Source of the DNA: Patescibacteria group bacterium
Lineage (GTDB): Bacteria > Patescibacteriota > Doudnabacteria > UBA920
DNA length: 64,000 bases
Assembly (NCBI GenBank): GCA_013387205.1
Contig: WARV01000002.1
Span: 3,341-67,340, forward strand
Direction of reading: 5' to 3'
In this document: one piece after another, positions 19,491 to 23,566 of the stretch
Numbering within the stretch: the stretch's first letter is position 1
How the letters are laid out: each line of letters begins with the position of its first letter
Program-made: the position numbers and the translations under genes
Notes under the pieces: model-generated
What the model was told of the DNA's origin: nothing
Databases searched by the model: none
What the model saw: only the letters and a program-made list of their open reading frames with translations

Positions 19491-22400
19491 TAAGTTAAAA
19501 CAGACAAGGGTATATGGTGGATGCCTTGGCAATATGAGCCGACGAAGGACGTGGTAGCCTGCGAAATGCCTCGGGGAGCTGGCAAACAAGCTTTGATCCG
19601 TGGATGTCCGAATGGGGAAACCCATGCACTGGAAGAGTGCATGCCTATACACTGAGGAGTGTGTAGAGCGGGAACCGTGCGAAGTGAAACATCTCAGTAG
19701 CACGTGGAAAATAAATCAATCGAGCGCAAGCTCGGAGAGATTCCGTCAGTAGTGGCGAGCGAAAGCGGAAGTATATAGATATTTATTCGCTGGATAAGTA
19801 TAGTAGTGTCCAACGAATAAATACTCTATTAGCCCAAACCTATAAAGTGTTATCGATGATAGCAATATCAGAGGTTTAAAGCTTACAGGCGTTGCTTTAT
19901 AGGTGTAATAAGTGGAAGTTATTGCCGTGCTGTAAAACGGCAGGGAATAAATGTGTGCTATGTAGCAGAACATGCCTGGAACGGCAGACCAAAGAGGGTG
20001 ATAGTCCCGTATAGCGAAACATCATGCAATTTCCTAACTTTTTCTTGAGTACAACCAGACACGAGAAATCTGGTTGGAAGTCAGGTCGACTAAGATCTAA
20101 GGCTAAATACTCATATTGACCGATAGTGAACAAGTACCGTGAGGGAAAGGTGAAAAGCACCCCGGAAGGGGAATGAAATAGTATCTGAAACCATATACTT
20201 ACAAGGAGTCGAAGGCTTAACATTAAGATTTATCTTAATGCAGGCTAACGGCGTGCCTATTGAAGAATGATCCAACGAGTTAATCTTATGCTGCTTGATT
20301 AAGCTTTAATAAAAGCGAAATCGTAGTGAAAGCGAGGATGAATAGTCCGTATTAGGATATTGAACGACTCGGCTACCAGTTAGCCGGTCGCAACAATTTC
20401 CTAAATGTAGCATGAGTTAGACCCGAAACCCGCGTGAGCTACTCATGGCCAGGATGAACGTGGTGTAACAACCACGGGAGGTCCGAACCCACTATTGCTG
20501 CAAAAATAGGGGATGAGCTGTGAGTAGGGGAGAAATTCCAATCGAACCGGGTGATAGCTGGTTCTCCTCGAAATAGCTTTAGGGCTAGCGTCGAGAGTTC
20601 CCAATAGAGGTAGAGCACTGAATCGAAACCTGCTGCGCAAGCGGTAGGCTCGAACCAAACTCCGAATTCTATTTGGTCAAGATCTCGGCAGTCAGTCCGT
20701 GAGGGCTAAGCTTCACTGGACAAATGGAGAAGAATCCACACCATCGTCTAAGGCCCCCAAATCCTAGCTATAGTGCAAAGGATGTGGGGTTGCTCATACA
20801 ACCAGGAGGTTGGCTTAGAAGCAGCCATCCTTTAAAGAAAGCGTAACAGCTCACTGGTCAAGCGATCCTGCGCCGACAATATATAGGGGCTAAGCTAGGT
20901 GCCGAAGACATGGATCAGCAGAGAATTTATTTTCTGCTGGTGGTAGAGGAGTGTTGTGCACAGGTTGAAGCGGCAGCCGTAAGGCGCCGTGGACAGTGCA
21001 CAAGCAAGAATGTTGGAATAAGTAATATATATAGAGGTGAGAAACCTCTTCGCCGAATATCCAAGGTTTCCAGGGCAACGATTGTCGTCCCTGGGTTAGT
21101 CGATCCTAAGAGTGGGCCTCAAGAGGTCCACCCGATGGAAAATACGGTTGATATTCCGTAACCACCTTTTAATTATCTTAGACGGGACGCATCATGGTAA
21201 CACTAGCGTAATCTGACTATTTGCGTTGTCCTGTTCGTAGGGTGAGATTCCAGGCAAATCCGGAATCTCTATAGGTTTTACCGCTACCTCGCAAGAGATG
21301 TTGTAAAATCTTGTAATCCCGAAAACAGGAAGAAACCTGGCAACGGGAATTAGTGTGAACCAAGGTGTCAAGAAAAGCGTCGAAGTCATGTTAAAAGGTG
21401 CCCGTACCGCAAACCGACACAGGTGGATGGGGAGAGAATCCCAAGGCGTCCGGATCAATGTTCGTTAAGGAACTCGGCAAAAAAGCAGGTGTACCTTAGG
21501 TATATACCTTGCCCTTTTGTGAGATTATATCAACTCAAAAGGGCCGCAGCGAAAGACCTCTCCCGACTGTTTACCAAAAACTTAGGTCCGTGCTAAAGCG
21601 CAAGCTGATGTATACGGGCTGATGCCTGGCCAGTGTCAGAAGGTTAAACCTGTGGGCGCAAGCTCGCAGGCCAAGCCCTGATGAACGCCGGCAGTAACTA
21701 TAACTGTCCTATGGTAGCGAAATTCCTTGTCGCGTAAGTTGCGACCCGCACGAATGGCATAACGAGTAGAGGACTGTCTTAACGAACATTCCGATGAATT
21801 TACAGTGGCGGTAAAGATGCCGTCTACCCGCAGCAAGACGGAAAGACCCTATGAAGCTTTACTATAGCGTGTCATTGCAGTTTTATTTTTGTTGCTTAGT
21901 ATAGGTGGGAGCCTTTGATGTCCCGGCTCTGGCTGGGACTGAGGCGAAATGTGAAATACCACCCTGCAAAGGTGAAACTGCTAACCAAAGCTTAACCTAC
22001 TTTGGGACAGTGGCTCGTGGGTAGTTTAACTGGGGCGGTTGCCTCCTAAATGGTAACGGAGGCGTTTATTAAGGTATGCTAAGCGCGGATGGAAATCGCG
22101 CTGATAGTGCAAACGCATAAGCATGCTTGACTGCAAGGGCGGCGACCCGCGCAGGTACGAAAGTAGAAGTTAGTGATCCGATGCGTTCGAGTGGAAGACG
22201 CAAAGCCCAACGGATAAAAGTTACTCTAGGGATAACAGGCTGATCCTCTCCAAGAGTCCACATCGACGAGAGGGTTTGGCACCTTAACCTTAATCGGGGT
22301 GCTAGGGCAGTGATGTCCTACCAAGTGTCTTCGTCCGTCTCTCTGACTACGTCAGAGGATAAAAATTGAAGATAAATAAATTCGGCTTATAACGGTGAAC

Positions 22401-22995
22401 CCGTAATTACCTAAGTGGAACATTCAGGTAATCGGCGATACCGTGGGAAGTCGTCCCGCCTTTGGCGGGATTGACCCCGTAACGACTGATTCGAAAGAAG
22501 AGACTTTGCTAGTCCGTATATAGCGCGGAAGCAGGGTAACACGCCGACTCTTGTCACAAAAAAGCAGGCAAAGGCTACAAAGAACCTAACGCCGCTGACA
22601 AGAAGAAGATATAGTCTGCCCCATGCGAAAGCATGGAATTATGTACGATGTCGGCTCATCACATCCTGGGGGTGAAGAAGCTCCCAAGGGTTAGGCTGTT
22701 CGCCTATTAAAGTGGTACGCGAGCTGGGTTCAAAACGTCGTGAGACAGTTTGGTCCTTATCTGCTGTGGGTGTACGAAACTTGAGTGGTCGCATCTCTAG
22801 TACGAGAGGACCGAGATGCATGTACCTCTGGTGTACCCGTTGTCGCGTCCGCGGCATGGCGGGGTAGCTAGGTACAGTTAGGATAAGCGCTGAAGGCATA
22901 TAAGCGTGAAGCCGTCCACAAGACTAGGTTTCGTTTGTCCCGATTTATCGGGACAGAAAGATTCGGGGAAGACTACCCCGTATTAAACTAGTGCT
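19491..22995 (+). rRNA. rrl: 23S ribosomal RNA (~3.5 kb because of an intron-like insertion in domain V and an AT-rich expansion in domain I); no 16S gene upstream
   Basis: Conserved blocks: GGATGCCTTGGC at the 5' end, GTACCGTGAGGGAAAGG, GGATAACAGGCTGAT, GATGTCGGCTCATCACATCCTGGGG, GCTGAAGGCATATAAGC near the 3' end. Confidence 0.93.
22285..22645 (+). other. Intron-like insertion (~360 nt, no ORF) interrupting the conserved domain V sequence GGCACCU^CGAUGUCGGCUC; probable group I intron (IVS not excluded)
   Basis: The flanks splice to exactly the universally conserved sequence; the insert is internally structured; 5' exon ends in U. Confidence 0.6.
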
Positions 22996-23201
22996 TAGTA
23001 CTTAGGAATTAGTACTTAGTAGCAATACTAAGGACTATGAACTAAGAACTTAGTACTAGCATATAGGCTGCAGGTGTAAGCATAGTAATATGTTCAGCCG
23101 AGCAGTACTAATCAATCGAAAGTTTTAACTTATTTTATCTGCCAAAATTTTCTTTTGAAAATTTTTGTTGACTAGCAATTTGTGACTTTAACATAATCCG
23201 A

Positions 23202-23276
23202 ATCTACGGATTCATCCAAATAACCCGAATATAAATTTGGGGCATTCGGATAATAATTCGGGGAATTAGGATTATA
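23202..23276. repeat. Family-P dyad repeat, copy 2, in the 23S-5S spacer, ending 4 nt before a micro-ORF ATG
   Basis: See 4873-5023. Confidence 0.75.
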
Positions 23277-23280
23277 GATT

Positions 23281-23391
23281 ATGATAAAACACAACCTAAA
23301 AATTTTAGCAGCAGTATTGGTTATCTTAGCGGTTATTGGTTTGTTTTTTGTCCTTTCAAATCCTATTTTACAGCAAGTTAAAGCAAATTAA
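23281..23391 (+). CDS. Possible 36-aa hydrophobic micro-protein in the 23S-5S spacer (MIKHNLKILAAVLVILAVIGLFFVLSNPILQQVKAN)
   Basis: ATG directly after a family-P repeat, same arrangement as pilT and the EndoQ-like gene; single TM helix; no homology evidence. Confidence 0.2.
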   Translation: MIKHNLKILAAVLVILAVIGLFFVLSNPILQQVKAN

Positions 23392-23449
23392 TGTAAATGC
23401 CCTTCAAAGCTAGCTTCTTATTAGGCTTATACCTTTTACGGAAGCTAAC

Positions 23450-23566
23450 TTTGGGTGGTATTTACGGCGGGGCTCGACCTGATCCCATCCCGAACTCAGC
23501 AGTCAAAACCGCTCGTGCCAATGATACCCTAGTGCATGCTAGTGGAAAAGTAGGTAACTGCCCATT
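23450..23566 (+). rRNA. rrf: 5S ribosomal RNA
   Basis: CCTGATCCCATCCCGAACTCAG...GTGCCAATGATAC...AGTAGGTAACTGCCCA matches the 5S consensus; terminator follows. Confidence 0.85.

Follow-up and report, generated by a model that had tools for sequence, protein, structure and literature searches.

What occupies the gap in a 23S ribosomal RNA (rRNA) gene that is interrupted inside the peptidyl-transferase centre, and can a gene so interrupted, lying in an operon that has no 16S gene, be expected to yield an ordinary rRNA? The question is raised by a 64-kb stretch of contig WARV01000002.1 (assembly GCA_013387205.1) of a Patescibacteria group bacterium, the whole of which is here called the window. 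An original prediction, made from the letters of the DNA, had proposed that the window holds a 23S-5S operon without 16S and that a ~360-nucleotide (nt) insertion in domain V of its 23S gene, devoid of any open reading frame (ORF), is a self-splicing group I intron. The explanation that we favour comprises a 16S-unlinked operon, an ORF-less group I intron at E. coli position 2500 that would be removed by splicing, and a conserved micro-gene in the 23S-5S spacer, and we put its probability as a whole at about 0.88.

Pairwise alignment to the rrlH gene of E. coli MG1655 places an insert of 361 nt exactly after U2500, at the predicted coordinates (22285-22645). The insertion site, between U2500 and C2501, belongs to the single-stranded, conserved central loop of domain V at the peptidyl-transferase centre, where it separates GGCACCU from CGAUGUCGGCUC. 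The insert begins with UAACC, ends with UGUA and has on its plus strand no ORF of 60 amino acids (aa) or more. Close to its 5' end lies an internal guide sequence that can pair with both exons: GGGUGC (22297-22302) pairs with the 5' exon GGCACCU as P1, the U22284-G22297 wobble being the last pair, and the adjoining AUCG (22293-22296) pairs as P10 with CGAU (22646-22649), the first four bases of the 3' exon. A contiguous P10-P1 guide is the arrangement by which both splice sites of group I introns are set, and the two pairings specify the same junction as the conservation of the rRNA demands. Scanned by itself against the Rfam model Intron_gpI (RF00028), the insert gave 33 bits (E = 7.6e-7), and P2 to P9 as well as the J8/7-P7 motif GAAGAUAUAGUC were aligned, such that the group I core, whose absence from covariance models had been named in advance as the result that would speak against an intron, was found. 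The G22484-C22616 pair, the bulged C22483 and J8/7 all align to the Rfam consensus, and the guanosine-binding pair looks standard. Judged from sequence and predicted fold, the insert is a group I intron of an IA-like subgroup with a P7.1/P7.2 extension.

Covariation was assessed in two tests. In the first, RNAalifold was applied to 28 sequences that MAFFT had aligned without regard to structure, and it recovered P1, P2, P4, P5, P6, P8 and P9, with compensatory changes in 28 of 51 predicted pairs. In the second, a hand-drawn P1-P10 fold, including P7.1, P7.2 and the P3/P7 pseudoknot, was counted on 28 homologues of the same architecture, again aligned with MAFFT. All 80 pairs of this fold are canonical in the window copy; across the homologues 93.3% of the cells are paired, against 37-41% when the partners are slid by 1-3 columns, double-sided (compensatory) changes occur in 45 of the 80 pairs, and the covariation score is 0.446 versus 0.05-0.10 in the slid controls. 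Of 500 shuffles, not one attained the observed value in any of the five measures. The U-G pair of P1 is kept in all 28 aligned homologues, and P10 is paired in 99% of cells, with a C-G to U-G change in five sequences. The outer pair of P7 covaries between subfamilies, being A..U in one (GUAACGACU/AGUCU) and G..C in the other (GUAGAGACU/AGUCC).

A search with the pattern AGATATAGTC-N15-45-CGATGTCGGCTC in one genome per GTDB species returned at least 119 loci, and both exons are present in 103 of those listed; what follows refers to these listed matches. In all 103 the insertion lies between GGCACCU and CGAUG. Most of the loci belong to the candidate phyla radiation (CPR)/Patescibacteria, other contig labels being Omnitrophota, Actinomycetes, Planctomycetes, Chloroflexi and a Coxiella endosymbiont, and several further metagenome-assembled genomes labelled Saccharibacteria also carry an intron at position 2500. 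By length the members form two classes, a short one (230-550 nt) and a long one (~690-920 nt). Those of 780-917 nt contain an ORF of ~190-230 aa that matches Pfam LAGLIDADG_2 at E ~1e-40 and is, by this match, a single-motif LAGLIDADG_2 homing endonuclease. It sits in the P6 loop and begins inside the P4-P6 core sequence, which is read through, the conserved endonuclease peptide NTVGSL being encoded by AAUACCGUGGGAAGUC. The window copy, on the best interpretation, is a derivative of this position-2500 family without the endonuclease and, having no ORF, is therefore not autonomously mobile. Eight loci (L005, L012, L014, L028, L033, L049, L073 and L077) carry the titles Gammaproteobacteria, Polynucleobacter or Nitrososphaerota and have introns that are very CPR-like, the 23S exons of L028 and L077 being 77-78% identical to those of the window; mis-binning or horizontal spread may account for them.

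The same site was found empty in a close relative. Locus L123 (GCA_021788875.1, JAJYKD010000372.1, 295-320) reads GGCACCTCGATG with no insert, its exons are 95% identical to those of the window, and GGCACCT-CGATG is continuous within GAGGGTTTGGCACCTCGATGTCGGCTCATCAC, exactly the consensus to which the flanks of the insert had been predicted to rejoin. This empty site confirms the boundaries 22284/22285 and 22645/22646 and indicates that presence of the intron is polymorphic among close relatives, as expected of a mobile or lost intron. Together with the Intron_gpI match, the P1/P10 pairings, the covariation and more than 100 homologues inserted at this position, it upholds the group I identity that had been proposed.

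Several observations weigh against this assignment or against efficient splicing. The 33 bits of the window copy lie below the Rfam gathering score of 50, and the intron was absent both from the whole-window scan at gathering threshold and from a 5-kb scan at E up to 10. The Rfam scan that had been suggested as a check thus returned no intron by default, and a match appeared only when a 391-nt stretch was scanned alone; homologues at the same site do reach the gathering score (L004, 77.5 bits; L010, which ends in A, 50.7 bits). P1 and P7 are invariant in the close subfamily, hence they provide no covariation evidence of their own. Finally, the last base of the intron, as fixed by the empty site of L123, is A22645 instead of the canonical G, a feature that the original prediction did not mention. 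In model introns such as that of Tetrahymena, a G-to-A change at the terminal position impairs exon ligation, so that the window copy may not self-splice efficiently.

The terminal A is not peculiar to the window. The tally of last bases over the 103 introns is 36 A, 67 G and no C or U. The A-ending members occur on both P7 backgrounds with an unchanged G-binding pair and J8/7, and no compensating change was found in or beside their G-binding pair, the same P7 and J8/7 strings being found with either ending. When the intron-encoded endonucleases are arranged in a neighbour-joining tree, the A-ending introns appear at no fewer than four separate places, and the terminal A is, on these comparisons, a recurrent trait of the position-2500 family. 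Some A-ending members lack any G near the 3' end (for instance AAUAAUACA before CGAUG), therefore a nearby cryptic terminal G is excluded. For the window copy itself, splicing at G22643 was considered and rejected: it would leave an extra UA in the peptidyl-transferase loop, or else need C2499U and U2500A, and it is ruled out by P1/P10, by the G-less A-ending members (...AAUACA before CGAUG) and by the empty site of L123. There is one published exception to the rule of the terminal G, a self-splicing 23S intron of Coxiella burnetii without the canonical omegaG, as stated in the title of Raghavan et al. (2007) that is cited in PMC11270868. A22645 is therefore regarded as a departure within the family and not as exclusion from group I, and on fold and homology the insert may be classed with the group I introns, its departure being rare but already described. 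A search of the literature collection available to us returned nothing relevant on L2500 introns or on introns ending in A.

If the intron is spliced, the reaction would proceed as follows. A precursor would be transcribed from a promoter near 19012-19040, the intron would fold, and its guide would pair with GGCACCU as P1, with the U22284-G22297 wobble at the cleavage site. Exogenous guanosine bound at the P7 pair G22484-C22616 would attack after U22284; P10 (22293-22296 with C22646-U22649) would then align the 3' exon, and the 3'-OH of U22284 would attack after A22645 to give GGCACCU-CGAUGUCGGCUC, identical to the sequence of the intron-less relative. In this second step the G-site would be occupied by A and not by G.

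It could be argued that, owing to its terminal A, the insert is a group I-derived element incapable of unaided exon ligation, which would depend on a host or trans-acting factor or would undergo hydrolysis at its 3' site and leave a two-fragment 23S rRNA. No precedent is known to us for a break within 2497-2507, a universally conserved strand of the peptidyl-transferase loop, and this counts against the fragmented form. The G-C binding pair is unchanged while A22645 is terminal, neither a maturase nor an endonuclease ORF is present in the window copy, and bacterial 23S rRNAs fragmented by intervening sequences (IVSs) are known to be functional (PMC4990558), all of which would suit such an element. 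We nevertheless consider it unlikely: the restriction of the terminal base to A or G in the 103 members argues for selection for a purine that still works, the pairing of P10 to the 3' exon is kept in A-ending members (99% of cells), the A-ending state arises repeatedly and persists in the endonuclease tree, and the Coxiella intron, by the title cited in PMC11270868, self-splices without the canonical terminal G.

An IVS processed by RNase III, or an expansion segment retained in the rRNA, might be suspected given that the Saccharibacteria rRNA genes surveyed in PMC11270868 are reported to have mostly short non-intron insertions and that several short expansions occur in this very 23S gene. 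The insert, however, lies in a single-stranded, universally conserved loop instead of at a helix tip, its ends form no long stem in the minimum-free-energy fold, and it has a full group I core with covariation, homologues with homing-endonuclease genes and a clean empty site in a relative, so that we attach very little weight to this possibility. Equally improbable is a decaying pseudogene or an assembly chimera with a dead intron. Apart from the window, the neighbouring STAS ORF was met solely on a short contig of a public read set, which would fit a chimera, whereas the Rfam match of the 23S gene is full-length with no truncation, its exons are 95% identical to those of L123 with the universally conserved sites intact, the processing helix, 5S gene and terminator are intact, all intron helices are canonical, and four relatives (L059, L002, L047 and L064) have the same architecture. 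A group II intron was also considered and rejected, the boundaries being UAACC...UGUA and not GUGYG...AY, with no match to a group II family at E up to 10. A group I intron that would be removed by splicing is accordingly the reading retained below.

The 23S introns of CPR described by Brown et al. (2015) and Tsurumaki et al. (2024, PMC11270868) resemble the present one in host group, gene and domain V region and also in the mixture of ORF-bearing and short ORF-less copies at one site and in their recognition through Rfam. According to the latter survey, the peptidyl-transferase centre is where the group I introns of CPR 23S genes cluster, consistent with the original statement that rRNA introns are established in CPR. 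Two differences emerge. Almost no introns are reported in that survey for Saccharibacteria, 64 of 66 insertions being short non-introns, whereas here a Saccharibacteria-like 23S gene holds an intron, which is mildly unexpected; and the listed sites with an endonuclease (1917, 1931, 1952, 2593, 2604 and 2657) have LAGLIDADG_1, whereas the position-2500 family has LAGLIDADG_2. In the text of the survey available to us, position 2500 could not be confirmed as one of the numbered sites.

Closest in the matter of the 3' end is the C. burnetii intron Cbu.L1917, likewise a 23S intron that self-splices without a terminal G (Raghavan et al. 2007, J Bacteriol 189:6572, by its title in PMC11270868). It is inserted at site 1917 instead of 2500 and represents a single species-specific case, as opposed to the 36 of 103 A-ending members, from many lineages, listed here. 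Its terminal base is reportedly A as well, and the intron is said to be of a different subgroup. In overall shape, the introns of large-subunit rRNA genes that possess P7.1/P7.2 (Synechococcus L2593, PMC1995217; phage Twort) are similar in having a short P5, a P2, P7.1/P7.2 between P7 and P3', GNRA loops capping P2 and P9, and, in full-length copies, a peripheral loop that houses a LAGLIDADG gene; they occupy other insertion sites, and the ORF of the position-2500 relatives is in P6, with none in the window copy. The IVSs of bacterial 23S genes are also extra sequence absent from the mature functional RNA, but they replace the tips of helices (9, 25, 45), possess a long stem cut by RNase III and are not ligated, and none of this applies to 22285-22645. 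The main feature is thus correct as originally predicted and of an established kind, since 23S introns in CPR, unlinked rRNA genes and one exception to the terminal G are all known.

With regard to the operon, the Rfam scan detected no small-subunit rRNA gene in the whole window, in line with the prediction, and the sole tRNA gene is a tRNA-Ser at 43548. The 23S match extends over 3638 nt against a model of 2925 positions (Table 1), and the predicted coordinates hold to within 3 nt. The gene order is NAD-dependent DNA ligase, STAS-domain ORF, 23S-5S and GH18-domain protein; the STAS-domain ORF is on the minus strand with its end at 18735, which leaves 758 nt of non-coding DNA ahead of the 23S gene, where ~700 bp had been estimated. 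By contrast, the spacer between 23S and 5S (23132-23450) had been overestimated at ~450 nt and measures 319 nt by the Rfam boundaries. Co-folding of leader and trailer yields a helix of ~70 bp around the 23S gene (-74.6 kcal/mol), which would be the classical 23S processing stem, cutting by RNase III being supposed from general knowledge of rRNA processing. The promoter-like site upstream is a candidate for the operon promoter, its function being deduced from the consensus, and the operon likely ends at the hairpin that follows the 5S gene. The leader also has a short GC hairpin with a T run at 19143-19156, and at 19182-19197 the sequence GCTGTTTAAAAATTAT, which resembles the boxA antitermination element of E. 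coli and may be a leader antitermination signal.

Table 1. Features of the 23S-5S operon, its intron and its spacer (positions in the window)
Feature	Position	Strand	Basis and remarks
Promoter-like site TTGACA-17-TAATAT	19012-19040	+	Consensus scan, 10/12 matches; ~455 nt 5' of 23S
Processing helix, 5' strand (leader and 23S 5' end)	19430-19499	+	19430-19452 perfectly complements 23165-23187
23S rRNA, exons and insert	19494-23131	+	Rfam LSU_rRNA_bacteria, 2293.5 bits, model 1-2925 complete
23S exon 1 (E. coli positions 1-2500)	19494-22284	+	Rfam match and alignment to E. coli rrlH
23S extra sequence, 161 nt after E. coli 276	19784-19944	+	rrlH alignment; domain I
23S extra sequence, 53 nt	20351-20403	+	rrlH alignment
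Group I intron (by fold and homology), ORF-less, 361 nt	22285-22645	+	Exactly after E. coli U2500, rrlH alignment
P1	22279-22284/22297-22302	+	6 bp, ends in U22284-G22297 wobble
Internal guide sequence AUCG-GGGUGC	22293-22302	+	Read from sequence; 3' part P1, 5' part P10
P2	22303-22309/22314-22320	+	Window fold
P3	22382-22386/22543-22547	+	Window fold; pseudoknot with P7
P4	22392-22397/22439-22444	+	Window fold
P5 and P5a	22401-22412/22426-22435	+	Window fold
P6 and P6a	22445-22459/22465-22478	+	Window fold
P7	22482-22488/22612-22617	+	G-binding pair G22484-C22616
P7.1	22490-22499	+	Window fold
P7.2	22504-22536	+	Window fold
P8	22549-22556/22596-22603	+	Window fold
P9	22621-22636	+	Window fold
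23S exon 2 (E. coli 2501 to end)	22646-23131	+	Rfam and alignment; holds 83-nt expansion within 22942-23057
23S extra sequence, 66 + 17 nt	22942-23057	+	rrlH alignment
Processing helix, 3' strand	23165-23187	+	23-nt perfect complement of 19430-19452
Repeated element, ~95 nt	23190-23280	+	Ends at micro-ORF start; AGGA 9-10 nt before ATG
Micro-ORF, 36 aa, MIKHNLKILAAVLVILAVIGLFFVLSNPILQQVKAN	23281-23391	+	Ten homologues, pN/pS
5S rRNA	23451-23566	+	Rfam 5S_rRNA, 69.3 bits, model 1-120
Intrinsic-terminator-like hairpin, 13-bp stem and T run	23571-23611	+	Sequence; 3' of 5S

The nearest matches to the 3' half of the 23S gene, taken without the insert, are contigs labelled Candidatus Saccharibacteria, with identities of 89.6% (L047), 88.6% (L059), 82.5% (L002) and 81.3% (L064), and the same operon architecture is found in all four of these independent relatives. 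L059 has no small-subunit rRNA gene within 2.6 kb 5' of its 23S gene, which contains every expansion of the window 23S and aligns to it without large gaps. On sequence evidence, the locus fits a 23S-5S operon, unlinked to 16S, from a Saccharibacteria-like bacterium of the CPR/Patescibacteria. Separation of the 16S and 23S genes is reported to be common in Patescibacteria (bioRxiv 10.1101/705046), so that the absence of 16S from this operon, though real, is ordinary for the lineage. Between the 5S gene and the genes for a DOT1-domain and a TrmB-like protein, the window has a gene for an 819-aa GH18/Ig/F5-F8 type C protein (23728-26187); in L123, L129 and L130 the DOT1-domain and TrmB-like genes lie directly 3' of 5S, so the 819-aa gene appears to be a lineage-specific insertion beside the rRNA operon.

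Apart from the intron, the alignment to rrlH located three larger blocks of extra sequence in the 23S gene (Table 1) and a few additional shorter pieces. The AT-rich expansion predicted in domain I does exist, with 38% G+C against 47.5% in the exons, its size being 161 nt and not ~110 nt. It folds into two main hairpins (z = -3.95 versus shuffles) and is also present in L059 and L124, where the stem bases are conserved and the apical parts have compensatory changes. From these comparisons it is a lineage-specific structured expansion, typical of the lineage, and it fits the description in PMC11270868 of Saccharibacteria rRNA insertions as nearly all short and non-intronic. The expansions in domains I and VI could be either IVS-like or retained. 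L124, whose Saccharibacteria-like 23S is 81% identical to that of the window, has two further insertions of ~0.9 kb (~2817-3736) and ~0.8 kb (~3908-4698), at places equivalent to ~21519-21535 and ~21707/21708 of the window, and these are probably other rRNA introns with ORFs.

The spacer between 23S and 5S had been thought to contain a possible hydrophobic micro-ORF of 36 aa, and this proved to be conserved and under purifying selection. Ten homologues of 31-36 aa were collected, nine of which lie between 23S and 5S or just 5' of 5S; the tenth, P0002, lies at the beginning of a contig, with a DOT1-domain gene 300 nt downstream, and has syntenic neighbours, a DOT1-domain gene being likewise located 3' of 5S in the window. 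The spacers of L002, L047 and L064 have counterparts of the same length that align without gaps, amid spacer DNA that cannot be aligned. A search of 1.84 billion representative proteins added P0001, located between 23S and 5S of L123 (1104-1214), and P0002. Scanning metagenomes with a clade-specific 5S pattern gave seven loci, six of them with a homologue just 5' of 5S (L125-L130), and the peptide is identical in L125 and L127. An exact look-up of the window peptide returned nothing, none of the 591 raw matches of a protein-pattern scan of metagenome contigs was confirmed by tblastn, and the micro-ORF is absent from the more distant relative L124.

Summed over all pairs of homologues, differences at codon positions 1, 2 and 3 number 675, 398 and 832, and four pairs that are independent by phylogeny have a ratio of nonsynonymous to synonymous change (pN/pS) of 0.16-0.46 (one-sided Fisher test, pooled p = 2e-16). 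On the Kyte-Doolittle scale, residues 8-26 average 2.2-3.1 in hydropathy, with lysines to either side. Searches of the 36-aa ORF against Pfam and NCBIfam gave only chance-level transmembrane-like matches (E of 0.03 or higher, far below the cut-offs), and the literature search found no description of this peptide or of ORFs in 23S-5S spacers. These comparisons indicate a real, conserved gene for a small membrane protein under purifying selection, predicted to be single-pass. From its location 3' of the 23S processing stem and 5' of the 5S gene, it is probably co-transcribed with the rRNA. A promoter of its own conserved across relatives was not evident, the upstream TTGAC(A/T) being part of the processing stem and having no conserved -10 element. 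Shine-Dalgarno-like motifs precede only ~8 of 37 long ORFs of the window, with A/T-rich sequence before most starts, so the lack of such a motif in the relatives is uninformative.

Upstream of the micro-ORF there is an element of ~95 nt, of which the window has three copies, always immediately ahead of a start codon: the copy at ~4930-5025 precedes a T2SSE-family ATPase followed by a T2SSF protein, that at 23190-23280 the micro-ORF, and that at ~34745-34848 a 459-aa ORF without a Pfam match. The copies are rich in CCGAAT/ATTCGG half-sites and end in GGGnAwTTAGGATTATAnATT, the last 21 nt differing by 0-1 mismatches among copies where 0.08 matches are expected by chance; in relatives the element was not found before the micro-ORF. 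It is possibly a shared promoter, operator or 5' untranslated region module, and in the window genome the micro-ORF would have acquired it as a module shared with a type IV pilus ATPase operon. The two dyad repeats predicted for the spacer correspond to real structures that differ in number and kind: one strand of the processing stem, an imperfect 17-nt inverted repeat inside this element (23214-23230/23256-23272), and an imperfect 25-nt inverted repeat that overlaps the 5' end of 5S.

A protein gene between 23S and 5S is unusual, since these spacers normally hold tRNAs or nothing. That the rRNA operon includes a previously undescribed membrane-protein gene and, jointly, that the position-2500 introns switch freely between terminal G and A is a proposition that we hold with moderate confidence. 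In practical terms, introns at the peptidyl-transferase centre lengthen the 23S genes of CPR and break primer and probe sites, and routine Rfam annotation can miss rRNA introns, which filter settings may hide. If the micro-gene is what it seems, its placement would couple the making of a membrane peptide to that of ribosomes, in a lineage that is episymbiotic and genome-reduced. If the introns splice as proposed, the second step in the position-2500 family would tolerate adenosine in an apparently unchanged G-binding site, and the A- and G-ending members, having the same G-binding pair, would offer a comparative system for the strictness with which guanosine is required in that step.

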